From assembly GCA_044892525.1 (NCBI GenBank), contig CM097885.1, forward strand, positions 19,780,001 through 19,844,000: a stretch of 64,000 nucleotides of DNA, written 5' to 3'. Source of the stretch: Schmidtea polychroa (taxonomy: Eukaryota). This document shows, piece after piece, positions 9,580 to 36,787 of the stretch (position 1 is its first letter; each line of letters starts with the position of its first letter). Both the position numbers and the translations under genes were made by a program. The notes beneath the pieces were generated by a model. The model was not told where the DNA came from. It worked only from the letters and a program-made list of their open reading frames with translations, and did not search any database.

Positions 9580-11992
9580 ATAATCATTATATCATATTTT
9601 GTGACAATTATTCATTTTTAGTGAACTTGTTGTGCATATCAAAGCTTCAATTATAGCATTTGTCACGACTGAGATAATGAGGCCATCCCCATGGAAGGCC
9701 GAACCGGTCAATTTGACCGGTATCTTGAAACACACAAGAAAGTCACACATAATCATCTTATATACTAGAAAATATAAAACCAAATATAATTTACACACAA
9801 CCGAAGCATTTAACAGTCATTTGGGAATGTTTTCCACAGTAAACTTTACTACATACATGGCATATAGCTCCGGATTTGTTATCACAATGAGGAGCAGAAC
9901 AAGTTTTTCGCTTCTTTAATTTTGGTTGTTCAGAACAGAGTTCAACAGAGATGGGACTTGCTGTTCGACGGCTTTTGAACTCCTCACAAAGAGATGTAGC
10001 TAATTCAAAAATAAAATCCCTTCTTTTTATAGTTGATCCCGTAGCATCTTTGAAAATAACATGAGCGTTGAGAGCTGCTTTATCAAGCAAATCATAGAAA
10101 GTAGCGACTGGCCATCTTGCTGTTGCGGCTTTACTGCTGTATAAACGCAACATGCTATCCATGGTATCTACAGCTGTCTTATCTTTGTTATAAAAGTGTA
10201 TCATTTCAGGCTTTCTCTTTTCGTCAGATCTCACACTAGCAGTAGAATGGAATGTTGACATGACAATGTCTTTCTTGTCCGATTTGCCTTGATAGGAAAC
10301 AGTGACAGTGTTTTGACACGATAAATGAGTCGATTCAAAAAGAGGCTTTTTCTCCAAGTGAGCTGATGATAAAAAGCGTGAATTTAATCTTACAGTACCA
10401 ACCAATGTTGTTCGATTTACAAGGAGATGTTCAGCTAGTGAGAGACTTGTAAAGAAATTGTCAGTGCAGACATTGTATCCTTTATTGAAAAATGGCTCCA
10501 TTAGTTTCCTTACTACAAAATCACCCAGTCGTAATCCACAGCGTTCGTTTCTATCGTGAGCCCCTAAATATGGCATTTGATTGATTACAAATTTGGTTTT
10601 GACATCACTGAGAATCCAGTATTTGATACCGAATTTATCAGGCTTATTTGGCATAAATTGGATGAAGCAACACCTATTTTTAGCGGCAAAAGTTGCTCGT
10701 CGACAGTAAGGAAGGGATTAGGAGTATAAACTTGAAGACAGTTTGAAACAAACAAGTCAAATATTTCACGAAAATGGGCATATTTATCTTGTTCTACTCT
10801 TTGACGTCGAGAACATTGTTCATCAAAACGAAGAAAGCGCAGTATCTCACGGAAACGGTTCCGAGACATGACTTCTCTGAAGTAAGGAGATCCAAATTGA
10901 GATGACCAGATTGAATTGATAGAATGTCGGCGAAAGCCTAACACACCACGGAGATACAGCAATCCAAGAAAAGCATCTAATTCTTGTAGACTGATACACC
11001 AGTCTGACGAAGCTTCTTTTCCTTTCATAATTGTGTATTTTTGAATTAACTTCAGCATTCCCTCAGAGACTATCAAGCGCCAAGCGCTCAGGAGTGAGTC
11101 AATTTTGCGCTTTGCAAAAGCTTTCACACCAGGTGTTCCACTAAAAATATTGTGCGCAGGGAATCTACCAACACTAATAGCGTGATTGTTTTCTACTCGA
11201 TTCCAAAGAGTGCCATCCCTGCTAGATAAAAGCTGATTTTCTAATGAAGAAATTGAGCTATTGACTGACTCATTGTCACTTTCTAACGAACTTCGATTAT
11301 CATCAGAGTTCCATTCATGTAACTCTTCGTCAGAATCATTTCTTTCGGGCTCATCATCACTTCCCATAGGCTGATCTTCATCTTCGGAGAGAGCAGCGTC
11401 AATATTCCATAGCTTCTGTAAAGCACGTTGAGCAGCAATTCTTTTAGTTGGCATATTTGATTCTAAAATAATGATAAAAACTCCGTCAGTAAAATAAGAA
11501 ACGTCAAATTTATTATTGGATTCTAATGAAAACACGGTTTTATAATGTTTGTTATCCCAAGAAGTTCAAAGATTTTCTATAACAATTATTAGATATTGTC
11601 TTATGACATTTCGTTAAGTTTTTCGTTTGATTCTTTTAATTTACCAAATTTCAAAACTTAGAACTCTTAATGCTTGCTTAATTACACTTTTAATAAGCAC
11701 TATCTTTGAATAAAAGCAAGAGAATATTTATAAACAAGAAATGTTTAAAATAGTGTAGCTTTGTGTCAGCTAAACAAATATTTTTATTTCATTGTTGTAA
11801 GTAGTTTAATAAATTAACTACTGTTAGAATAAAAATAGTTAAATTTTGAAAGCGTGTTAGTAGCACAAAGAAAGTATTGCTAGATGAGTTGCATCATAGA
11901 AATCTCAGCATGAAAATAAGGAGCATATGTGCACCGGTCAAATTGACCGGTTTGGCCTTCCAAGGTATAAAATATTTCCGGCCGTCCTAGTG
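9580..11992 (-). mobile_element. piggyBac DNA transposon 1, left end missing
   Basis: Ends CCTAGTG-TTAA (11993-11996). Internal palindromic repeat ACCGGTCAA(A/T)TTGACCGGT at ~9703 and ~11933. No matching TTAA-CACTAG found on the left. Confidence 0.85.
9791..11454 (-). pseudogene. piggyBac transposase (PGBD4-like), frameshift near 10680
   Basis: MSRNRF, TVDEQL, MPNKPDKFGIK, TDNFFTS, AVDTMD and C-terminal Cys-rich domain, split over two frames. Confidence 0.92.
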
Positions 11993-12222
11993 TTAAGATG
12001 AGTCCACTTATGTTTTTCTCTCGTCCAATTTATTACCCTCATTTCTCCCGTGATATTTTTGACGGCCAGTACGTTGAAGTTCTTAGTCAATCGGCCGTCG
12101 TTACTAATTAACTTTATGGTCACTGGAGTAGCCATCATTTGTTGGACATTACCGCCGATAACCCCTATCGGTGTCCTCTTTTCAACCCCTTTTAAACCAA
12201 GCTCCTTTAAAATTCTTAAATT

Positions 12223-13895
12223 TATTGGGCTAGAACTGATTTCTAAACCCAAAGTTAGGAATGGGACGAAATGTGCCAATACACAACACGCATACCCAGC
12301 ATTAAGTTTACTTAAATAAAAATATATAAAACACCAAGTAAACAATGATAATAGAGAGATAATATACCCAAAAATAAAACATCTGAATTAAAAATAAAAT
12401 AAAACACGAGCAAGAAGTTACATGAAAACTTACTCAAATATAACCGAAAGACATAAAACAACAAAAAACAAGTTCGAATAAAGGGATTAGTAAAAATTAA
12501 AAAAGAAAATTTAAGAAAATCTCCATAAAATCTTACGTAAAGAAAATTACATCGATATTTTGAATAAAAATCCAGAACAATTCAAAAAAAAAGGCGAAAT
12601 CCATCATGACCGCCAAACGACCCCATAAAATTTATAAAAAATAAATATTTTAGTTTAAAAAATAAATATTTTAGAAAAGAAATCATAAAAAACAATTTAA
12701 AAATAAGAAATAGATTAAATTTAGCATGGAATGTTCTGGAAATGCTGAAATCCATCATGGAGGCAACTTTAATAAAAAATAATTTAAAATTAAATTTCAA
12801 AAATAAAAACAAAAATTCTTACTGAAAAATCACCATCAAAATCGATAAAAATTAAAAATCGAATGTTCGAGAATTAAAATAATCCGAATTTGTTTTACTG
12901 CATTATAGAAAAATTTGTGAAAATAAATATAACAATATAAATTACCTAACTGAACGAGTGGAAATGTGGATTGTGCCGCTGATGACTACCGCAACTGAGG
13001 AAGAAGCAAGCATTGCGAAAACAAAGTTCGACGCTAATGCTTCTTTCTCAGCGAGGTCGAATACAGTGACAATTTCATAAATAATTACTTAAAAATTGAA
13101 ATTACAAATAAATATTAAAATTTGAATTCACCGCTTTGGGGTGATAAATAAATGACTGTTACATCATCATTTAAAACAAGTATTTAAGTCAAAGATATAC
13201 TAATTTAATTTATTAATTTAAGTTAAAGATTTATTACTTTAATTTATTATAAAATTTAAATTTTTCCGATGGATTTTTCATTTCCATGATTAAAGAACTA
13301 AAATAAATCCTGGTTTTACGCTAAATTAATATAAGATTAAAATTTAGACTAGTTGGAAATTCTTGTGGAATGGTGAGATAAGGCGGTCTAAGTATTTTGT
13401 CAGGATAGGTTGGCAGAGTGGACCAGACGCGATGAGCATTTAAACCAGAATTAAGTAGGGCAATGGGGCAACTTTAGGTAACAAATCTCATTTAGATGTC
13501 AGACGCAAGGAGATCCAAGAAAGACGGAAAAGTCGGCCCATCTTCAGGGAAGATAGGACAGATTGATCCATGAATAATGATGATCGATACGAATGGTGGG
13601 GTGAGCTGACACAGTGGGAGAATACAAGATACGTTAACAAGTTATCGGGAGCACTATTTGACGACAGGGACCGTATAAAACGGACACAAACCTTCTAACG
13701 GTAGTCCGTGAACCCAAAGGAGTGCCCAGCAATTATAGTGCGGATAGCGCGCTCACTTTTTGCGAGCACTCACCCTCTTGATACATTACCAACGTTGATC
13801 ACTCAACGGGTATTAAGTGGTAAAACAAGATTGTATTCTGGGTTACGCTGGAAACAGCACGAATAGGTAAAATGTATGCTTACTGTAACCCACCA
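12223..13895 (-). mobile_element. Probable solo LTR of giant-LTR family, copy A (1.67 kb, internally deleted)
   Basis: Minus strand TGGTGGG...CCCAATA; flanks AATT/GATT (4-bp TSD with one mismatch); splits the BEL protease frame. Confidence 0.8.
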
Positions 13896-15369
13896 GATTG
13901 ATGTAGCTTACTGAGCTTTCATCATCTAACAGTGCATTTACTTTTATTTTCTTGTTCCCATTTTCCAGGTAAATTGGAATTGTTCTTAAACTAAGGTAAG
14001 GTCTTAGGTTTTTCTCGTTCATCACTTTCTAGGTCAACATCGTGTTGTTACCTTTTTCACTCTCCTCACTGAGTTGTCTTTCATGTAATAATTCGTTGTG
14101 TCTTTGCTTACATCCGGTAACCTTGCAGAAAGATTCTTTACGACATTCCTTGGCCATTTGATTTCTTTTGAAACAATTCCTGCACAGTTTCTTTTCTTCG
14201 ATGACTTTCTTCCTTTTTGAAATTGTGAGTTGCTTGAACTTGTCACATTGGTCTAGGTAATGTTGACCACCACATTTTACATACTCTAAGCTAAAGAGGT
14301 TAGAGTTATTCGCCTGTATGACCGTTCCACTTTTAAATCTGCCATCTGGTTGCCTTGTAAAATGCGTCCGACCTCCTGGATTGAAGCTTTCTCTTCCTCT
14401 AGACACACCTTCTACTCTTGGCCCATCATAAGTCCTGGTGCTTGGTTGAATCCCATACACGACCTCGTAAGTAGATCTTAGGATCTCCGCTTCTTGTTGT
14501 ATCCATCTTCTCAAATCCTCTATTGTCTCCCGCAATTCCTTTTCTATTTTGTCTTTCTTCCATTTATAAACAAGATTTGTAGTTAACTTGCCTAAACACT
14601 TTTAAAAAAGACATCCAGTCTTTAACTCGGATTCTTTCCCAGTGGATTTAAATCGAACGGTGACTGTTTCTAATAATCCAACAAATAAGTCTAAATCCTT
14701 CAAATCTCCTTCTCGAATTGACCTGAACTTGTCCATCTCCTCTAACATTGATAAATATATCCTTTCATCCCCACCATATCGCCTATCCAACTTCTCTTTT
14801 GCCATTTATTAGATCTTTGCCGAATATCCTAGATTTTCAATTAACTTTAATGGCTCTCCGTGAAGGTACTTGTGCAGGTGAAACATCTTTTCAAACTCAT
14901 CACCTTCCGCTTCGTCAACACACGCAGTAAAAGCTGATTTCCATGGTTCGTACTCTTTCATCTTGCCTTCAAAAACAGGTATTGTAACTTTTTGTAGACT
15001 TTCTAGTTTTCTTTTACGCACTGAATTATTTTTCTTGATTGTATCATCATTCTCATTTTCTTTCTCTTCCTTAAAAGATTGATTTGCTTTCTTTTCCATC
15101 AGTGCCCCAATTATTTGATGTTTTTCCTCAATCTCTTGCAGGTCTTTATCTAAGATTGCAGTGATATCCAATCTTTGCAATTTTTTACTAATCGTTCTTA
15201 GATCCCCTAATTCTTCATCTAGACTCTCCTTTTGATCTTCATATTCATCCAACCATTCACTGACTTCTTTCCCATTTATATCATTGAGAATCTTGTTTCT
15301 CAATCTCGTTAATTTTCCTTTTTTCATTCTCTTTTTCCACAGTCCTTCTTCTAAAATCTTTTCGTCATT

Positions 15370-15597
15370 GCCACCGCACAACCTGAGTGACAAATGAGGT
15401 GTCGAACCTACTTGTATGCTATAGTCGTTCAATATTCTTTTATTTTCTAATTACTTTCCTGCGTAGACTAACATTTGATAATTTACCGGAATTCCTTCTT
15501 TGTCTTGAATTTTTTCTTTTACATTTTCAATCGTGTCATTCAATTCAACGTCAAGAGTAATTGTCTTACCAGTAAGAGTTTTGATAAATATTTGCTT
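15370..15597 (-). pseudogene. Ubiquitin-like domain in frame with BEL Gag
   Basis: 76 codons (K)[17 protein letters not shown]...KIQDKEGIP...AGK*LENKRILNDYSIQ..S..HL.LRLCGG continuing directly into Gag. Confidence 0.9.
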
Positions 15598-15930
15598 CCT
15601 ACTTCTCAATCGAAACTCTCCTTCTTCCCCTATTCGACAACAACAAGCCTCAAAACCCATTACTCCGCTCGCCCTCAACCTTGACTTAGCTCGCAAAAAC
15701 GCTGAGCTTCTTATTTTATTTTTATTTAAACGGTTCCCCTGGCTACCCACTTTAAAAAAGTGCTGGGTCCCATAGCAGCACTTTTTCACGCTTGATAGGG
15801 AAGGGAGGATGGTTAATTTTACATATATAAATTCAAAATAAAATGAAAATAGTTTAAAGGAAACCATAATTCACCATTGATCAGCCAAGGCTGTCTCGAC
15901 TGCACCATTGGTGCGTAGCCCCCTAAAGGG

Positions 15931-15948
15931 AACCACACTCTTCTACCA
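15931..15948 (-). promoter_or_regulatory. Primer binding site (initiator-Met tRNA-like) of the BEL element
   Basis: Minus strand ...AACA|TGGTAGAAGAGTGTGGTT, close to the TGGTAGCAGAG..TGGTT PBS. Confidence 0.7.
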
Positions 15949-15970
15949 TGTTTAAATATTGAATGGAACA

Positions 15971-16434
15971 TGTTGGCTCAGATAAACTCGCACTTGTATT
16001 GAGCATCATCTTCTTTCGAAACATCAGCTAAAGGCCATTTACTTGATTCCTCATATAGTAATAACTTATGTTCGGGGATAACGGCAAGCATAAAGACCGA
16101 TTTATAGAGATTCGTGTCCAAATTTCCATGCGTCTGTTCCAGTTTTATTGTTCGAATATATAGAAATTCATATCAAAACTATCCGCTTAAAGTCAATCAT
16201 TTCTGAACCTTCAACTGATTTGAATTTATTCAACTTCATTTGATCAAGATTTAATTTCCATACGATTATATAATCACATAAATCCACACTTACAAAGAAT
16301 GAGTTAGTTTCATTGATTAATTTCGCTATTGATTCTGAATGTCCATATAATATATCACTCTGTTGGCCATCTTCTAAACTCCATATAATTATAATATCAT
16401 TTTCCATTTCGAAATACATTAAACCAATTAACAA
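15971..16434 (-). pseudogene. WD40-repeat gene fragment
   Basis: IIIWSL...LYGHSESI...FVSVD.CDYIIVWKL pattern; stops downstream. Confidence 0.5.
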
Positions 16435-16549
16435 AAATCTTTATATTCAAAATTTACCAAAACTCACAATATTTAAACAAGTGATATAAAATCCAAAATA
16501 AAAATTGAAAACCGATTAATCCAAAACTTTGGTAACAACTCGACAATTG

Positions 16550-16905
<356 letters not shown>

Positions 16906-19997: not shown

Positions 19998-20096
19998 GTG
20001 CACACATTCACAATGTCAATTCCTGGTTGGTGTATAAATTGTAAGCGTATTGATTATTATTTAAATCCTTAACATTGAAATGGACTCTCTGTAAAC

Positions 20097-22136
20097 ATGA
20101 ACCTTTCTGATTTTCAGTTCACCAGCTCATTGGAAGCTCCTGTTTATTTGTTAACTGCTTTAAACGAATTGTATGGAATATTTCAAAATGTTTCTACCAC
20201 TTATAGTGAAGACGGACACTTAGTTGAAAATGGTATAAAACTGAATTGTAGTCGAAAGTCTCCAGCCACAGAATATGCTGAATATGCCATTGGTACATAT
20301 TATGTTATTTGTATTATTATATTCTCCATGATGGTCAAACGAGTATCTTATAGACGGAATCAGTGTAACGGCAAGCCAGGACTTGTATTGCCAATGAACA
20401 TGTTAAACAGTCACAATTACATCGTCGAATATACGTTGATTTTTCTCTCTCTATCCGAAGCAATTTACGCTTACATTTTCGGATCGAAGGTAGAAGTTGG
20501 TCAAATAATTCCAATTGGTAATTTTTTTATTAAACTATTTATTGTTATCGTAATTTCAATTCTTTCTTATCCAATTTTTGCCGCCATTACAAGTCGCCAT
20601 TTGTTCGGCTATATTACTGTTATGCTGGCGTCAGTTGCTACTTTTTTTGTCGGGGTTTCAGCAACATATACCTATTGTTTCTGTTTAGTTGGCGTGAAAA
20701 TCGTTCCGTTTTTATTTGCAGCCGTCCTCTACAGTTCGATAGAAATATCTATTGTTGGGATGTTTGTTTGGAAAACTTTTTGTCACATACGAGAAAACGG
20801 ATTTAGAAATCGGGAATTAAACTGCAAATTGTCACCAGATAAGGAAAATTCGAAAATTTATGTTAGAAAATTGTTGAATGAAAATTTAGACTTGAAGTCA
20901 TTGAAAACAGAAAATCCGACAGAAGAAAAAGAAGAAGAATTGAAATTTATTGTCAGCCATTTTAAATGCGACGAATTGAAAAGTAAAATGAAAGAAAAGA
21001 TTTATAGACCGATTCCTGGATTCCGGTTACCACCACGATTGATGATTGGGATGTTTGTGGGGTTGTATTTTGCCTATAGGATTTTCATAGATAATATTTT
21101 GGGGCTGACTCCAATCGCGTGGAAGCTGCTAGATGTAATTAATAAAAAATATTTAACTACACAAACAAATATTAGTCGATCTTTTTACTTAATTTGGAGC
21201 AACTATTCTCTTTATTCAAAGTTGGAAATGCAAAATTCCTTTCGATATCTAACTTTCTCTTACACTCATCTTTTGATTTCCTGTCTTCTTGCAGCAATTT
21301 TTATCGCATTTATTAATTCCATTATTCAGTCCTTATTACTGTTGAGAAATTACCGACTTCATTTTCATCGAATAACGAGAAAGGGGTTCTCAACTTTCAT
21401 GGACATCAAACAAGCCCCTCCTATCTACGATTTGGTACTCGGATATGTTCGATTCAGTGGTTATCAGGCAGCGTATACTTTGTGGGGAATTTTAGTCGTG
21501 ACGTTTTTTATGTTTATAGTTCTTTTTATTGTAATTGGTATAGTTCTGTGGCCTTTATTTTATATTGAAAATTCTTGGCCTAGGACACTTCTGATTAACT
21601 ATGGTCCGGTATTAGTCGTGACGATTATTTTTAATATTATTCAAACAACGATTGTGAAATATTTATTTATCATGGAGAAAGGAACGATTATGGAAGTGAA
21701 CAATCGAAGATCATTTATAATTTATACGCATTGTGCATTTTTTCTAAATGCTATGATGGGAATTTTCAATTCTGTCAAACGTGTCATCATCTGGGTATTT
21801 TCTGGAGTGTTTTGCTTTTCTAGAATAGATTTTAGTTCTTTGCCTGAATACTTGCACGGATTCGACAGTGGATACATGGCATATGTAGGATTTGTTTACA
21901 CAGAACAATATCATTTTAATCCTATTTTACTATGCTTTACGGATCTTCTTGTGGAAACGAAAAAAGAAAAATATATTAATACAAATGAAGATCAACTCGA
22001 CTTATTAAATAATGACAAAGGACGCACGAGGTTTAGAAATTTGTGGCGTGTCGCTGTTACTTTAATAAACAACCACCAGTTGTTATTAGAGAGGAAAAAT
22101 ATTTTGAAAAATAATGTTGTTTGTGATGGAGAATGA
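20097..22136 (+). CDS. STRA6-like / RBP-receptor family multi-pass membrane protein
   Basis: 679-aa uninterrupted ORF with many hydrophobic segments. RID..LP.....D.GY..Y.G...E..H.NP.L..F and R.RN.W..A.TL.NN..L...RK motifs of the STRA6 family. Confidence 0.88.
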   Translation: MNLSDFQFTSSLEAPVYLLTALNELYGIFQNVSTTYSEDGHLVENGIKLNCSRKSPATEYAEYAIGTYYVICIIIFSMMVKRVSYRRNQCNGKPGLVLPMNMLNSHNYIVEYTLIFLSLSEAIYAYIFGSKVEVGQIIPIGNFFIKLFIVIVISILSYPIFAAITSRHLFGYITVMLASVATFFVGVSATYTYCFCLVGVKIVPFLFAAVLYSSIEISIVGMFVWKTFCHIRENGFRNRELNCKLSPDKENSKIYVRKLLNENLDLKSLKTENPTEEKEEELKFIVSHFKCDELKSKMKEKIYRPIPGFRLPPRLMIGMFVGLYFAYRIFIDNILGLTPIAWKLLDVINKKYLTTQTNISRSFYLIWSNYSLYSKLEMQNSFRYLTFSYTHLLISCLLAAIFIAFINSIIQSLLLLRNYRLHFHRITRKGFSTFMDIKQAPPIYDLVLGYVRFSGYQAAYTLWGILVVTFFMFIVLFIVIGIVLWPLFYIENSWPRTLLINYGPVLVVTIIFNIIQTTIVKYLFIMEKGTIMEVNNRRSFIIYTHCAFFLNAMMGIFNSVKRVIIWVFSGVFCFSRIDFSSLPEYLHGFDSGYMAYVGFVYTEQYHFNPILLCFTDLLVETKKEKYINTNEDQLDLLNNDKGRTRFRNLWRVAVTLINNHQLLLERKNILKNNVVCDGE

Positions 22137-26998: not shown

Positions 26999-29393
26999 AT
27001 TATTATTATTATTAGTGAAAAAACCTTAAATAATTTTTACACACTAAGTTATGGGGTAGAGTATTATTATGTTTGCAGTATTCTGTGTTTGCCTTCACAG
27101 GAAGTTGTCAATAAGGAGCGATAATTTTACACACACATTCTATATACACATACATTGTTTAACATGGGTGTATATACTCCTAGTCTATCCGACAAAATAT
27201 TCTGTCCCCCTATGGGTATTGCTCACAAAGGTACTGGTCACACTCAACATGTCGCAAGGGTATATTAATTAGGGTTAGTAAATAAAACTTATCACACACA
27301 CTATTTAAACGATAAAAATCAAGACAAGAGAGGACAAGGCAAAGTGTATGCAGTTATTATTGCCAGGCCTAATGAGCAGTGACCAAATATCTGTGCCTGA
27401 AAGACACGGTGGATATTTGTTCGCGTCCACAAGGGTCGTCTGTGCCTCCCCCAAGTGGGGTCAGAAGAACCTGGGCATTATAGTTTTCCGTACGGAACAT
27501 TACGCCTAGCATGGGTAGTCAACTACCAGCACATTCGAAACGTATAATTTCAAAATACATGCGTCATTGGCACTATAACCAAATTAATTATTGTTTTCAC
27601 TAACACAAATATATATTTACAGAGGCCTCCCACTAGTTGGATTACAACCGCCCACCACGACGATCAGCTTGTAAATGTATATTAATTAAGGGATAAAGAG
27701 GACCTACCCAACCCTATTATATTTAATTTACAAATTTTTCTCGCTCTTCTGCTGGTATTCTATCTCATCTCTATATATCATCTCTATCGGGCCATTTGGA
27801 ATACATCTTGCAAATTGGACGTATTTCTTAGTTTCTGATGCGGCGTCCACTATCATTGCTAAAATTTATATTGATTTAAAAGCAATTAACTTACATTATC
27901 TAGCATTTTATCGTCACAAATTAAATTCTGTCTGACTATTAGGCAACTGTTATTTGTGGTATACTTTTTCAATGTCATTTCCCACCATAAAACACAGATA
28001 CCTAAATATAATATATATATTTTAAAGAATTAATTCATGTCTTACATTAATAATAATATTCTTCAGGTAGTACTTTACTTAATTGATAAAACATCGGTTT
28101 TTCCCATTTTTCTTGACAATCGTTGAAAGTTTACATAATTTAAGTCTGATAATTCATGTTGAAGGACAACCACAATCAGCTAATTCATTTAAGAAATCCG
28201 GAACTATAACTCCTTTAGTGTTTCACCATTTTGTCTGATTCATCTTCTTCATAATCCTATAATTCAGGTTTAAATAAGAATCTCTAAATCTCTATAACAC
28301 ATAAATCCTTTGGTGTTTCACCATTGGTACGGTTCATCTTCTTCATAATCCAATAATTCATTTTCTGTTGGTGGTCTGAGCGGTCGATTTAATTAGAAAT
28401 AGATATATTAAAGATATTTAAGATACCATTCAGTAAATGAATTCTTAGTTAATATAGTATTTTTGAGTATTTTTTAGTTAATTTTTTAAATAACAGTATT
28501 TTGATATATCAATAAAGACCATATACTGCGAGTTTATCCGACAGGATATTCTGTCCCCCTATGGGTACTGCTAGCAAAGGTACTACTCACACTCAACATG
28601 TCGCAAGGGTATATTAATTAAGGTTAGCAAATAAAACCTATCACACATACTTTAATATTTAAACGATAAAAATCAAGACAAGAGAGGACAAGGTAAAGTT
28701 TATGCATTTAGTATTGTCATACCTGATGAGCAGTGACCAAATATCTGTGCATGTTAATAATTAATTATTATTTAAAGGTTTAAAAATACTGATAAATAAA
28801 ATTCTTCAATTTTACTTTGTGTAACATATGACTTTTATCATTTTCTTATCATTGTTTTATTTTGTTTAAATCTTTTAAAGCAAAAATAAAACATTTTTGT
28901 TTTGATTTAATTATTCTAAAAGTTCTCAAATTCAAAATTTATCTAATAATTAATTGTAATTGACATCTTTACACTATTCTAGAATTTTAGATTACTAAAG
29001 AAAGTATAATTATAATTATAACTTTCTTTCTTTACTAGAAGAAATTTATGATCTATCAGAGTATAAGAAAGTAAATCATTTGTTATTTAAATTTCGGTTT
29101 TATTTATAGATTTCAGGTTGAAAATAAATTAATGCAATGCAGTATCGATATCATAGAAAATTATTTTGAATATAATTTCCAGGTGAAATGTATTTAATTT
29201 TTAAATGTAAATAATTAAATATTTATTGTAAATAATTAAATAATTAATAATTAATTAAACCGGTCCTTAAATATATTTTAATCTACATAATTTCTCAAAT
29301 ATATTCCTCATTTCTTCAATAAAGCACAAATGACTTTAAAAAATTATAAAACTCTTGTTGCTTCGTATACCATGTAAAAAGTGTGATAATTTA

Positions 29394-29457
<64 letters not shown>

Positions 29458-29461
29458 TTAA

Positions 29462-29493
<32 letters not shown>

Positions 29494-29496
29494 TTA

Positions 29497-29587
<91 letters not shown>

Positions 29588-29697
29588 ATCATTTTTAAAC
29601 ATTTTATAATTAAACATTTTTTAAAATTAATACCAGAAATTTATATAAGAATATTTAAGATCATAAAAAAAAAAAAAACAACACGTATTAACAAAAT

Positions 29698-30030
29698 TTA
29701 TTTTCTAAATCCACCCATCGTAGAATAATGGTGGATTCTAAGGGCTTTCGCTATAGCACATTCAATGTATCGGTTATACCGAAATATACATTCATCACAA
29801 CTTTTATTAGCGAGGACCTCGGTTTCCACATTCGTCGGTACCCTGTTCAGCTTCACGTCCCAAAGAAACCTTTGGTATATATCTGATATCCATATATCAG
29901 TTGCTGAATACACGAGTTCGTGGATCTTCTCAGCAGCATGATTTTGAATAACCGGTTCTAGTTCCGGATAAAAGCTCTTCAGTTTATTGAGTATAATATA
30001 TAAATATTCTTCAGGGATGTTTGAATACAT
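29698..30030 (-). CDS. Polinton accessory protein, left-arm copy
   Basis: 110 aa; homologous to the spliced gene at 3516-3922. Confidence 0.75.
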   Translation of the reverse strand: MYSNIPEEYLYIILNKLKSFYPELEPVIQNHAAEKIHELVYSATDIWISDIYQRFLWDVKLNRVPTNVETEVLANKSCDECIFRYNRYIECAIAKALRIHHYSTMGGFRK

Positions 30031-33000
30031 CTAAATAAAAACATTAATTTAAATAAAATAAATAATAAAGTACTTACTTTAAAATAATGAGAATGATATT
30101 AAATAAATTAAAAAACTATTTATACCATTTCCTCAAACACACCATATGTTCAACCTCTCGACTGTCTCTGGTTGATTTCCATAGGGAAACATCTGTTTAT
30201 CTGTTATCTCTGGGGGGGGATTTCTTTGCTCATCCATTGAAAACATCTGTTGCCAACTCTGGTTGCTGCCACTGATTACATATTCGATTATGTAGAATTT
30301 ATTAAGTAATTATTTTATGTGTTATTTTATAAATAGTTTATTTAATGTGATGCATTTGATTTTCAAATAGATATTTATTACTTTGTAAAATTATGTTATA
30401 TAACTATATGAAAATATGTATTCCCAACTTAACCGAACCCTCACTAAATCCAACCGACTCTAATTTCACCACTTGAACCCTTTAATATATATTTCTACAT
30501 AACCGATCCCTCACCAAATAATTCTACCCACTTGAACCCTTTAATATATATTTCTACATAACCGATCCCTCACCAATTAATTCTACCCGCTTGAAATCAA
30601 TTCTTTAAAAACCCTTAGAAAATGTGAAAAATCTTTAAAAATATGAATTTTCATTAGTTGTTATCGCCACATAACATACATTTATGAAATATCTAAATAG
30701 ATATATAATAAGAGCATCCTTGTTCAAAATTTACTAAAATCAATATTTTCTACAAATATTTCACCGCATTTACCATCAAATACCTAACTAGAGATGAAAT
30801 ATATTGATTGATCATAATTCTTCATCGATTCAGCTAATTATATAGCAATTATAACGTGATATATCTTTCAAAATCACAAATTTCAGTATATTTTACAATA
30901 ATTTTTACAAAAATTAAATAATAACTTGATTATTGTAAAAACTCTAATTATTAACCTAACTGTCATTAAAAATAATTTTTATTTAAAAGTAAATTTAAAA
31001 ACAAGTCAATAAAATATAGCAAATTATCAAGAAATTAATTAAATTTGTCTTAGAATTAACACTAAAACGTTAAATTTCAAAATATTCTTTCAATTATTCA
31101 CAAAAAATGTTGGTAAAATCCCGCTAACTCTAAAAATTACCAATGAATTTAATTCCAAATAATAACCAAATATTTGCCTAAATAAAACACATCAGTACCT
31201 TTGCGATCAGTACCCTTACGACCATTACCAATTGTGAAAAGTACCCATAGAGGGAGAAAATATCTTGTCGGATAAACTCAGAGTATATATAATAAAACGA
31301 ATTAACAATAACTCCATCAAATTGAATCAGTCAAATTATCACAAATTTTAATAAAAAATCTTATTCTAAAGTGGTAAGCAGCCATAGGTGGTAAGAATAT
31401 TTTATTTTTGGGTCTGTTATCCCTCTATTATCATTGTTTACTTGGTGTTTTCATATATTTATGTAAAGTTAATGCTGGGTATATGTTCTGACACACTTTG
31501 TTTCCTTCTTAACTTTGAGAGATCATTTTGATTAAAAAGAGTAATGTATCTTAAATTATCTTTTATAATATCTGTTTTTGAAATATTTAATGTAAAATAG
31601 TAAATCTCATAATTACTAATTCAATATTAAAGCAGTTAATCAAAATTTAAAATATAAAGTTAACATAATTGCTTAGTCAATGCCATTTGTTATGTATGTT
31701 TGTCATTTTTGGATTAAATACTTTATCAAAATAAATGTTTATCACATTATTATTATTCGTTAGTCACTCATATATTAGAAATAATTTATAAATTCTCATC
31801 ACTTATAGCCCCCCATTTTCCACTAATCCTCCAACAACTATTTCTTTGAAAATTTTATTAACTATTTTTTATTAAAGTGATCATTTTTATAAATTTTTAT
31901 GAATTTCATGAAATAATTTTAAATAAATGCAATTAATATATTTCCATCTTATCTATGCCACTTCTCGGTATATTTACATTTATTTTCCATTAATGAATAA
32001 TTCAAACACTTATTTTCAATTATTTTTTTTTTTTTGAATTTCATTATTAATGATGATTCTTACCACCTGAGAATAATATTGTTAATTTTATCTCTGTGTT
32101 ACCTTTCGATTTTACGATGCTTACCACTTTAGAATAAGATTTTTTATTAAAATTTGTGATAATTTGACTGATTCAATTTGATGGAGTTATTGTTAATTCG
32201 TTTTATTATATATACTCTGAGTTTATCCGACAAGATATTTTCTCCCTCTATGGGTACTTTTCACAATTGGTAATGGTCGTAAGGGTACTGATCGTAAAGG
32301 TACTGATGTGTTTTATTTAGGCAAATATTTGGTTATTATTTGGAATTAAATTCATTGGTAATTTTTAGAGTTAGCGGGATTTTACCAACATTTTTTGTGA
32401 ATAATTGAAAGAATATTTTGAAATTTAACGTTTTAGTGTTAATTCTAAGACAAATTTAATTAATTTCTTGATAATTTGCTATATTTTATTGACTTGTTTT
32501 TAAATTTACTTTTAAATAAAAATTATTTTTAATGACAGTTAGGTTAATAATTAGAGTTTTTACAATAATCAAGTTATTATTATTTAATTTTTGTAAAAAT
32601 TATTGTAAAATATACTGAAATTTGTGATTTTGAAAGATATATCACGTTATAATTGCTATATAATTAGCTGAATCGATGAAGAATTATGATCAATCAATAT
32701 ATTTCATCTCTAGTTAGGTATTTGATGGTAAATGCGGTGAAATATTTGTAGAAAATATTGATTTTAGTAAATTTTGAACAAGGATGCTCTTATTATATAT
32801 CTATTTAGATATTTCATAAATGTATGTTATGTGGCGATAACAACTAATGAAAATTCATATTTTTAAAGATTTTTCACATTTTCTAAGGGTTTTTAAAGAA
32901 TTGATTTCAAGCGGGTAGAATTAATTGGTGAGGGATCGGTTATGTAGAAATATATATTAAAGGGTTCAAGTGGGTAGAATTATTTGGTGAGGGATCGGTT

Positions 33001-33443
33001 ATGTAGAAATATATATTAAAGGGTTCAAGTGGGTGAAATTAGAGTCGGTTGGATTTAGTGAGGGTTCGGTTAAGTTGGGAATACATATTTTCATATAGTT
33101 ATATAACATAATTTTACAAAGTAATAAATATCTATTTGAAAATCAAAATAACACATAAAATAATTACTTAATAAATTCTACATAATCGAATATGTAATCA
33201 GTGGCAGCAACCAGAGTTGGCAACAGATGTTTTCAATGGATGAGCAAAGAAATCCCCCCCCCAGAGATAACAGATAAACAGATGTTTCCCTATGGAAATC
33301 AACCAGAGACAGTCGAGAGGTTGAACATATGGTGTGTTTGAGGAAATGGTATAAATAGTTTTTTAATTTATTTAATATCATTCTCATTATTTTAAAGTAA
33401 GTACTTTATTATTTATTTTATTTAAATTAATGTTTTTATTTAG

Positions 33444-33776
33444 ATGTATTCAAACATCCTTGAAGAATATTTATATATTATACTCAATAAACTGAAGAGC
33501 TTTTATCCGGAACTAGAACCGGTTATTCAAAATCATGCTGCTGAGAAGATCCACGAACTCGTGTATTCAGCAACTGATATATGGATATCAGATATATACC
33601 AAAGGTTTCTTTGGGACGTGAAGCTGAACAGGGTACCGACGAATGTGGAAACCGAGGTCCTCGCTAATAAAAGTTGTGATGAATGTATATTTCGGTATAA
33701 CCGATACATTGAATGTGCTATAGCGAAAGCCCTTAGAATCCACCATTATTCTACGATGGGTGGATTTAGAAAATAA
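33444..33776 (+). CDS. Polinton accessory protein, right-arm copy
   Basis: Differs from the left copy at residue 6 (L versus P). Preceded by TATAAATA (~33350) and a GTAAGT...TTTAG 5'UTR intron (33397-33443). Confidence 0.75.
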   Translation: MYSNILEEYLYIILNKLKSFYPELEPVIQNHAAEKIHELVYSATDIWISDIYQRFLWDVKLNRVPTNVETEVLANKSCDECIFRYNRYIECAIAKALRIHHYSTMGGFRK

Positions 33777-33889
33777 ATTTTGTTAATACGTGTTGTTTTT
33801 TTTTTTTTTTTTATGATCTTAAATATTCTTATATAAATTTCTGGTATTAATTTTAAAAAATGTTTAATTATAAAATGTTTAAAAATGAT

Positions 33890-33999
<110 letters not shown>

Positions 34000-34003
34000 T
34001 TAA

Positions 34004-34073
<70 letters not shown>

Positions 34074-36787
34074 TAAATTATCACACTTTTTACATGGTAT
34101 ACGAAGCAACAAGAGTTTTATAATTTTTTAAAGTCATTTGTGCTTTATTGAAGAAATGAGGAATATATTTGAGAAATTATGTAGATTAAAATATATTTAA
34201 GGACCGGTTTAATTAATTATTAATTATTTAATTATTTACAATAAATATTTAATTATTTACATTTAAAAATTAAATACATTTCACCTGGAAATTATATTCA
34301 AAATAATTTTCTATGATATCGATACTGCATTGCATTAATTTATTTTCAACCTGAAATCTATAAATAAAACCGAAATTTAAATAACAAATGATTTACTTTC
34401 TTATACTCTGATAGATCATAAATTTCTTCTAGTAAAGAAAGAAAGTTATAATTATAATTATACTTTCTTTAGTAATCTAAAATTCTAGAATAGTGTAAAG
34501 ATGTCAATTACAATTAATTATTAGATAAATTTTGAATTTGAGAACTTTTAGAATAATTAAATCAAAACAAAAATGTTTTATTTTTGCTTTAAAAGATTTA
34601 AACAAAATAAAACAATGATAAGAAAATGATAAAAGTCATATGTTACACAAAGTAAAATTGAAGAATTTTATTTATCAGTATTTTTAAACCTTTAAATAAT
34701 AATTAATTATTAACATGCACAGATATTTGGTCACTGCTCATCAGGTATGACAATACTAAATGCATAAACTTTACCTTGTCCTCTCTTGTCTTGATTTTTA
34801 TCGTTTAAATATTAAAGTATGTGTGATAGGTTTTATTTGCTAACCTTAATTAATATACCCTTGCGACATGTTGAGTGTGAGTAGTACCTTTGCTAGCAGT
34901 ACCCATAGGGGGACAGAATATCCTGTCGGATAAACTCGCAGTATATGGTCTTTATTGATATATCAAAATACTGTTATTTAAAAAATTAACTAAAAAATAC
35001 TCAAAAATACTATATTAACTAAGAATTCATTTACTGAATGGTATCTTAAATATCTTTAATATATCTATTTCTAATTAAATCGACCGCTCAGACCACCAAC
35101 AGAAAATGAATTATTGGATTATGAAGAAGATGAACCGTACCAATGGTGAAACACCAAAGGATTTATGTGTTATAGAGATTTAGAGATTCTTATTTAAACC
35201 TGAATTATAGGATTATGAAGAAGATGAATCAGACAAAATGGTGAAACACTAAAGGAGTTATAGTTCCGGATTTCTTAAATGAATTAGCTGATTGTGGTTG
35301 TCCTTCAACATGAATTATCAGACTTAAATTATGTAAACTTTCAACGATTGTCAAGAAAAATGGGAAAAACCGATGTTTTATCAATTAAGTAAAGTACTAC
35401 CTGAAGAATATTATTATTAATGTAAGACATGAATTAATTCTTTAAAATATATATATTATATTTAGGTATCTGTGTTTTATGGTGGGAAATGACATTGAAA
35501 AAGTATACCACAAATAACAGTTGCCTAATAGTCAGACAGAATTTAATTTGTGACGATAAAATGCTAGATAATGTAAGTTAATTGCTTTTAAATCAATATA
35601 AATTTTAGCAATGATAGTGGACGCCGCATCAGAAACTAAGAAATACGTCCAATTTGCAAGATGTATTCCAAATGGCCCGATAGAGATGATATATAGAGAT
35701 GAGATAGAATACCAGCAGAAGAGCGAGAAAAATTTGTAAATTAAATATAATAGGGTTGGGTAGGTCCTCTTTATCCCTTAATTAATATACATTTACAAGC
35801 TGATCGTCGTGGTGGGCGGTTGTAATCCAACTAGTGGGAGGCCTCTGTAAATATATATTTGTGTTAGTGAAAACAATAATTAATTTGGTTATAGTGCCAA
35901 TGACGCATGTATTTTGAAATTATACGTTTCGAATGTGCTGGTAGTTGACTACCCATGCTAGGCGTAATGTTCCGTACGGAAAACTATAATGCCCAGGTTC
36001 TTCTGACCCCACTTGGGGGAGGCACAGACGACCCTTGTGGACGCGAACAAATATCCACCGTGTCTTTCAGGCACAGATATTTGATCACTGCTCATTAGGC
36101 CTGGCAATACTAAATGCATAAACTTTGCCTTGTCCTCTCTTGTCTTGATTTTTTTCGTTTAAATAGTATGTGTGATAGGTTTTATTTACTAACCTTAATT
36201 AATATACCCTTGCGATATGTTGAATGTGAGTAGTACCCTTGTGAGCATTACCCATAGGGGGACAGAATATTTTGTCGGATAGACTAGGAGTATATACACC
36301 CATGTTAAACAAGGTATGTGTATATAGAATGTATGTGTAAAATTATCGCTCCTTATTGACAACTTCATGTAAAGGCAAACACAGAATATTGCAAACATAT
36401 AATAATTCTCTACCCCATAACTTAGTGTGTAAAAATATTTTAGGTTTTCACTAATAGTGATAATAATAATTGTTAATGGGTTGTGTGTGTGTGTAAAAAT
36501 ATTTTAGGTTTTCACTAATATTGATAATAATAATGGTTTATGAGTGTTTTTATGTTTTTGACTAATATTTGCAATAATAATAATGGTTAATGGGTTGTGT
36601 GTGTGTGTGTGTAGAAAATATTTTAGGTTTTCACTAATATTGATAATAATAATTGTTAATGGGTTGGGTGTGTGTAAAAAAAAAAAAATTTTAAGTTTTT
36701 GACTAGTATTTGCAATAATAATAATATTGATAATAATAATTGTTAATTGGTTGAGTGTGTGTTTTTATGTTTTTGACTAATATTTGC

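Follow-up and report, generated by a model that had tools for sequence, protein, structure and literature searches.

A decayed BEL/Pao retrotransposon copy of Schmidtea polychroa and its family, in which ubiquitin is a probable cleavable linker between LTR-encoded host fragments and Gag

The window considered in this study is a stretch of 64,000 nt from Schmidtea polychroa, whose AT-rich genome of 781 Mb includes four large contigs, and a decayed LTR retrotransposon with a ubiquitin (Ub) unit directly before Gag occupies part of its minus strand (Table 1).

Table 1. Features of the Ub-Gag element and of its surroundings in the window
Feature	Position	Strand	Remarks
BEL/Pao Ub-Gag element, decayed copy		-	minus strand of the window
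5' LTR, WD40-cargo type	15949..16634	-	upstream edge approximate, 16634-16644
Host-like coding fragment within the LTR, WD40/beta-propeller-like	15951..16440	-	two frames and a stop in the window copy
Primer binding site (PBS)	15931..15948	-	complementary to the tRNA-Met 3' end
Leader	15598..15930	-	out of register in the window copy; in most sisters stop-free and a multiple of three
Captured ubiquitin, 76 codons, ending L-R-L-C-G-G	15370..15597	-	Pfam PF00240, E=6e-22
BEL/Pao Gag (helical N terminus, DUF1759 region, Cys-His knuckles)	14029..15369	-	in the Ub frame
Aspartic protease region, start	13895..14028	-	interrupted by the insertion
Unrelated insertion, about 1.67 kb	12226..13894	.	element similarity ends at 13895 and restarts at 12225
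Protease region, continuation	11993..12225	-	followed by no pol and no 3' LTR
piggyBac-like DNA transposon where the retroelement ends	9689..11965	-	33-nt terminal inverted repeats; Pfam DDE_Tnp_1_7

The initial annotation, made from the DNA alone, had recognized a 76-codon ubiquitin-like unit between the PBS and Gag, in the Gag frame, and this was confirmed by Pfam, by the coordinates and by comparison with the PDB, in which the best sequence matches are all ubiquitin. The GG dipeptide is encoded at 15375-15370, and the single TAA reported inside the unit was found at 15453-15451; stops within Gag occur at 14811, 14808, 14604 and 14031. The window copy is dead, given its five in-frame stops, the insertion in the protease region and the truncation at the piggyBac-like element. 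The leader contains a hairpin at 15735-15806 and an in-frame ATG at 15660-15658. What had been missed at first is the host fragment encoded in the LTR upstream, which in intact relatives lies in the same frame. In the window, the LTR cargo is represented by two ORF pieces (16440-16168 and 16172-15978), and the LTR shows 83-93% identity to other copies of the WD40-cargo type across 15949 to about 16634-16689; this type was matched by 40/40 scored candidates, out of 328 candidates. The WD40-like cargo is unbroken and in the PBS frame in L026, and unbroken up to the LTR end in L163, L164, L166 and L167, even though the WD40 label itself is weak (Pfam E of 0.012-0.027; Atlas features of 0.95-0.96 with low recognition). 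Its parent gene was not found in the genome search, where the LTR copies masked any match.

Elsewhere in the window, the transposase of the piggyBac-like transposon is divided over two frames, an unbroken ORF of 685 codons (20079-22136, plus strand) belongs to the retinol-binding-protein receptor (STRA6-like) family (Pfam 1.5e-59), and a large near-perfect inverted duplication, with arms 99-100% complementary, spans 27068-36399 and may be either a fold-back element or an artefact of assembly.

Two relatives of the window copy, L046 and L048, preserve the complete layout of the element. Each contains one stop-free ORF of 2189 codons, which opens inside the 5' LTR and extends to the 3' LTR (LTR pairs 99.6-99.7% identical), and which encodes, in order, the LTR cargo, the PBS read as H-G-S-R-A-W, the leader, the Ub, DUF1759, the protease, the reverse transcriptase (RT), the Pao RNase H region and the integrase. 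In P0002, the polyprotein of an intact relative, Pfam located DUF1759 (563-702), a weakly matched protease (902-1020), RVT_1 (1240-1343) and Peptidase_A17 (1411-1570), with the integrase Zn domain (1802-1853) and DUF5641 (2075-2166) in the C-terminal part; neither an envelope domain in P0002 nor a deubiquitinase domain in the element's own polyprotein was detected by Pfam. The family is a BEL/Pao LTR retrotransposon by its Gag-PR-RT-RNase H-IN order and its Pao-type domains, and the same assignment, made earlier for the window copy, holds, the latter being 89.5% identical in DNA to L046 across Ub, Gag and protease. The 21 LTR pairs listed are 96.6-99.9% identical, and among them target-site duplications of 5 bp occur in L043, L052, L067, L070 and L072 and one of 6 bp in L054. 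The family PBS, which matches tRNA-Met(CAT) genes of the host genome, has 328 exact genomic matches, against 0 for the control. The tRNA-Met(CAT) genes also occur as tandem arrays with a 454-bp unit, from G000:C1:79326093 (L210), with 1228 exact pattern matches genome-wide.

The Ub is a constant part of this family. It was present in 19/19 other loci returned for the Ub-Gag stretch and in 18/20 loci chosen by RT alone, the remaining two also lacking a PBS, and in family A the unit is 71% identical to canonical Ub (the reference being taken from the polyubiquitins of the homologue search), with GG in 61/69 distinct copies. A single-sequence AlphaFold prediction of the Ub with the start of Gag gave pLDDT below 50 over the Ub. 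We assign next to no probability to a one-off insertion of a ubiquitin pseudogene, or to a neutral hitch-hiker, which might be suggested by the dead state of the window copy, with its five in-frame stops and nested insertions; the Ub is family-wide, under purifying selection and found throughout a clade whose pol identity is 37-48%, and the one-off pseudogene is thereby refuted. The result that would have told against a functional captured Ub, sister elements devoid of the domain, did not materialize. Likewise, the AAG at the first position of the window Ub had been read as a damaged Met codon, but Met is absent from this position in all 77 distinct copies, which have S (35), N (20), K (16), Y (5) or I (1) instead, and upstream of it the frame remains open. 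A damaged start codon is ruled out, since the Ub is internal, and the family members follow, instead of an ATG-Ub-GG-Gag layout, the order LTR cargo-PBS-leader-Ub-GG-Gag-Pol.

The open frame upstream of the Ub was examined in a PBS-anchored set of 88 loci of contig 1, drawn from the 100 listed among the 328 matches, most of the remaining 12 being loci covered elsewhere in the analysis. The PBS of sister copies translates as G-S-R-A-W, and its frame is open for at least 100 codons upstream, in the LTR, at 61/88 loci, compared with 1 and 0 for the other frames, one of which is interrupted by a stop codon within the conserved end of the LTR, and with 0/264 antisense controls having 100 or more open codons. 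Furthermore, the longest stop-free run in the last 600 nt upstream of the PBS is in the PBS frame at 70/88 loci, and all nine multi-copy LTR types have members open for 100 or more codons in this frame; copies and LTR types are non-independent, the types being mosaic and the largest cluster comprising 42 of the 88 mosaic LTRs. The distance from PBS to Ub is a multiple of three in 59 of the 78 loci with a Ub, the leader being stop-free in 52 of those 59, and 11/13 recurring lengths are multiples of three. Cargo, leader and Ub are all open in 38/78 loci. An AATAAA was found within the last 80 nt of the LTR at 75/88 loci, against 3-10 in control windows, which suggests that U5 is very short and that the cargo would lie in R, at the front of the RNA. 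In contigs from runs guessed to be RNA, no GT..AG joint was listed across the leader, and the 5' part of the LTR showed a GT..AG-type skip that could simply be a variant at the DNA level; such contigs cannot show starts or strand and are not counted here as evidence.

Two further features of the 5' region may be recorded here. The translated leaders of families A and B and of the Gypsy-type family described below are often hydrophobic (best 19-residue Kyte-Doolittle window of 1.0-2.6 in 52 open leaders) and may represent a membrane anchor or just T-rich sequence. In L046 and its sisters, in both families, an AAG/GTA motif resembling a splice donor lies downstream of the PBS, roughly 40 nt inside the internal region, and, by analogy with HIV-1, a motif of this kind could suppress the poly(A) signal of the 5' LTR.

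On these grounds we consider it probable (roughly 0.7) that the frame of the family, of which the window holds a decayed BEL/Pao copy, opens in the 5' LTR on fragments of host mRNAs, and that the Ub acts as a cleavable linker before Gag, cut by host deubiquitinases. Transcription would start in the 5' part of the LTR, making most of the LTR R and placing the cargo at the RNA front, and ribosomes would start on the cargo ATG, so that only in-frame captures would keep making Gag-Pol. Host deubiquitinases would then cut after GG and give Gag and Gag-Pol a fixed N terminus whatever precedes it; it would follow that the LTR can serve as an exchangeable cassette in which any in-frame capture is tolerated, the cargo peptide being mostly a tolerated passenger. 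The captures themselves may have arisen when reverse transcription switched its template to a co-packaged mRNA. A start on the cargo ATG by simple scanning has against it the out-of-frame ATGs that occur upstream of it in many LTRs.

As regards the cargos, Pfam matches above cut-off were obtained for proteasome alpha, EAP30/Vps22, dual-specificity phosphatase, adaptin, and CCT plus Ras, and weak matches for vinculin, RING, cofilin and WD40. In the one cargo type tested for its origin, that of L048, a first exon with its ATG comes from one host gene (L062, 96.5% identity), which we take to be RPB6, and is joined to four exons of another (L061), with 94-100% identity and the introns missing; this cargo derives from spliced host mRNA. 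The cargos are mosaics of partial domains, differ among LTR types and are common to families A and B, and a single type may reach 1522 candidates. The dN/dS between cargo and parent ranged from 0.43 to 1.87 in six in-frame comparisons, each with few changes, three further copies being out of frame.

The main rival to the cleavable linker is that the cargo itself is functional, with host-protein fragments acting as decoys or effectors, or host-like sequence escaping piRNA silencing, and with Ub cleavage releasing them. The pieces involved (proteasome alpha, Vps22, CCT, DUSP, ASF1, HSP70/90, DnaJ) come repeatedly from proteostasis and trafficking genes, some types are very abundant, and the lowest dN/dS value, in one comparison, would agree with such a role, which is compatible with the linker but would require selection to act on the cargo. 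However, the remaining parent comparisons gave 0.6-1.9, the mosaics are arbitrary in their content, differing by type while being shared by A and B, and proteostasis and trafficking genes are also simply abundant mRNAs; we regard cargo function as unlikely.

Dozens of near-identical proteasome-alpha fragments (L175-L179 and many PF10584 matches), dispersed over the genome, resemble LTR cargo and inflate the apparent gene copy number. Seven PF10584 loci were compared with the proteasome-alpha cargo, and its parent gene was not among them.

To return to the Ub as a linker, selection on the unit was estimated by comparing dN/dS for changes shared by at least three distinct copies with that for private changes, copies with gaps or with less than 72% identity being dropped. 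In family A, the Ub gave 0.25 for shared changes versus 0.97 for private ones (n=69, Fisher p=2.7e-4), and by the same count Gag gave 0.28 and 0.14, the Ub of family A resembling the Gag value of 0.28; the leader gave 0.98. Family B, whose Gag is 32% identical to that of family A and which has LTR types in common with it, carries two Ubs (di-Ub): the one adjacent to Gag has a dN/dS of 0.09 and GG in 24/24, and the upstream one has a dN/dS of 0.89, with GG lost in 4/20. Purifying selection acts on the Gag-adjacent Ub and its GG, and leader, cargo and the second, upstream Ub look near neutral in this sequence comparison. A third family, C, represented by one decayed locus with a 5' end (L225:1921-3341), combines an LTR-borne piece of ASF1 with a piece of HSP70 in the leader and carries, before Gag, a Ub remnant ending in ALKGG. 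A Ub-less BEL family that could serve as a control was not found among 20 DUF5641 loci of this genome.

The residues of Ub needed for conjugation and signalling (the I44 patch, R42, K63, R74) are not intact in the element Ub. In particular, family A commonly has M42, V44, V63, S70 and C74, and Ub2 of family B has N44, G72 and A74; the drift of R42, I44, K63, V70 and R74 fits a unit that would be kept for cleavage, not for signalling. This bears on the three roles that had been proposed for a captured Ub, namely Gag processing, an N-degron or ESCRT recruitment, of which only the first stands, as inferred cleavage. An N-degron would expose a destabilizing residue and so tune Gag, and the residue after GG is in fact Asn in most family A copies, Asn being a tertiary destabilizing residue; in other lineages, however, it is S, M or G, and this variation between lineages disfavours the role. 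Recruitment of ESCRT for particle release has a precedent, as Ub fused to Gag can drive budding in the experiments of PMC2958808, but there the GG was deleted, and ESCRT-associated factors no longer bound once I44A was introduced. In the retrotransposon, the GG is retained, the I44 surface carries changes (I44V/V70S in family A, I44N in Ub2 of family B) and no envelope domain was detected in the polyprotein by Pfam, which disfavours ESCRT recruitment. We therefore rejected both as the main role and judge either of them very improbable.

Including the three BEL families of this genome, a Ub directly before Gag was found in these and in seven database proteins. In the first relative set, 2 of 45 Gag relatives carry it (P0123, P0124); in a representative search it occurs in 5 of the best 150 Gag relatives, one more starting with a Ub-like tail, and a third homologue search returned no further Ub-bearing relative. 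P0123 has a DNAJA1-like piece (E=6e-5 against the PDB), followed by the PBS peptide GSRAWFP and by a Ub 32% identical to canonical Ub, with the tail MRLLGG, and P0124 has an HSP90 piece and the Ub tail LRLQGG. In a quick pol tree of 32 rows, a branch with an SH-aLRT of 98 separates the Ub-bearing families from the rest; the label of three of the seven Ub rows was taken from the family and not from a Ub of the row itself. The Gag tree joins A, B and P0123 (96/91), P0124 being placed without support and a single origin appearing in only 9% of bootstrap trees.

All seven outside Ub tails end in L-x-G-G, the other tail positions vary, and the next residue is N, S, M or G across lineages. Some tails depart from LRLRGG (LRLCGG, LGLAGG, MRLLGG, LNLYGG), which may slow cleavage, and the replacement of R74 or R72 in several lineages can be taken to favour another explanation, in which the Ub remains attached and assists in folding, solubility or assembly, or else is cleaved by the aspartic protease of the element. 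Gag would then be translated from an ATG shortly before the Ub, the LTR frame being open only to avoid nonsense-mediated decay, and in fact 66/77 family-A copies have an in-frame ATG at most 30 codons upstream of the Ub that could be the main start. Nevertheless, L-x-G-G is constant even though the remainder of the Ub retains as little as 32% identity with its canonical form, the sole invariant GG of family B is the Gag-adjacent one, and any upstream frame open into Gag would be translated as well, for which reasons we hold this explanation to have only a slim chance, below that of a functional cargo.

The cleavable linker has its closest counterpart in cytopathogenic pestiviruses (BVDV CP Rit, Osloss; PMC8310069, PMC13517609), where a host Ub without its own start likewise lies in frame before a viral protein and host hydrolases make the N terminus of the latter; such Ub insertions, single or double, are often placed behind other host or mosaic sequence. 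In BVDV CP Rit, a host fragment precedes a Ub that is truncated at its N terminus, and cutting of this Ub by UCHs yields the NS3 N terminus (PMC8310069). The features of the pestivirus-type signal are present in the retrotransposon, with an internal host-derived Ub in frame, GG directly before the protein to be released and no proline after GG. Nonetheless, the pestivirus cases are sporadic RNA-virus recombinants, whereas here the Ub is fixed and selected across a retrotransposon clade, before Gag, with the variable part in the LTR; and cleavage, demonstrated in pestiviruses, is inferred for the retrotransposon Ub.

With BEL/Pao elements as described in the main text of PMC3118150 the family shares the single Gag-Pol ORF, with DUF1759, protease, RT, Pao RNase H region, integrase and DUF5641, as well as the tRNA primer site and the 5-bp target duplications, but in this family the reading frame already begins in the LTR, continues across the PBS and takes in a Ub; the main texts of PMC3118150 and PMC13524379 have 0 occurrences of the word ubiquitin. 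BEL/Pao families named Flow have been reported from Schmidtea. The GAG ORF of yeast Ty1 likewise opens within the 5' LTR and continues across the primer binding site, with only a few element-encoded codons at its start, no captured cargo and no ubiquitin. LTR-mediated retrocopies and Bs1 (PMC5131818) similarly consist of spliced host mRNA pieces, sometimes from several genes, acquired by template switching and copied with the element; unlike those captures, which are internal and typically leave the element non-autonomous, the ones considered here are in both LTRs of autonomous elements, Ub-fused in frame to Gag-Pol. Among planarian LTR elements, the giant Gypsy elements Burro/GYPSM1 also have a ubiquitin/SUMO-like domain in the polyprotein, but according to PMC6431247 it lies inside the polyprotein after Gag, and is not a GG-ended unit before Gag behind LTR cargo.

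A Gypsy-type family of this genome (L183:7615-9846 and L184:892-3312; G000:C1, about 190 kb before the window) has a Ub-like domain directly before Gag. Its order is a long open frame, a hydrophobic stretch, a divergent Ub-like domain (Pfam 4.6e-8) ending in PFFGG, and Gag, and it was matched by 40/40 scored candidates at 98% or more; convergence with the BEL Ub-Gag design is possible on this arrangement. It is tempting to go further and to hypothesize that the LTR is a translated, exchangeable host-gene cassette enabled by the Ub cleavage site, that the Gypsy family converged on it independently, and that released fragments or the host-like LTR are used against silencing or proteostasis, but we offer this broader proposal only tentatively and hold it to be doubtful as a whole.

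In the literature searched, neither a Ub preceding Gag nor a translated cargo in the LTR was described for BEL/Pao elements, although accounts of these families may exist in Repbase Reports, subscription journals and supplements. The apparent novelty would be a BEL/Pao clade joining a pestivirus-like Ub linker with translated, exchangeable LTR cargo. We know of no earlier retrotransposon lineage using host deubiquitinases for polyprotein processing, and, if the linker reading is true, this would be the first one known; it would also explain how host sequences can be swapped in the LTR without loss of Gag-Pol expression. Moreover, the element family offers, in many copies, a record that can be dated of how mRNAs are captured and exons shuffled, with the di-Ub family and the neutral leader as internal controls, and it carries a warning that hundreds of loci in this genome with the appearance of host-gene paralogues or ubiquitin genes are passengers of LTRs.

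Finally, non-autonomous copies of families A and B (L031, L038, L185) share a similar C-terminal tail that replaces pol, their Gags being only 32% identical, and head-to-tail tandem arrays of non-autonomous elements of about 4.5 kb occur at L039, L040 and L187, with units 99.9% identical in L039 and L040.
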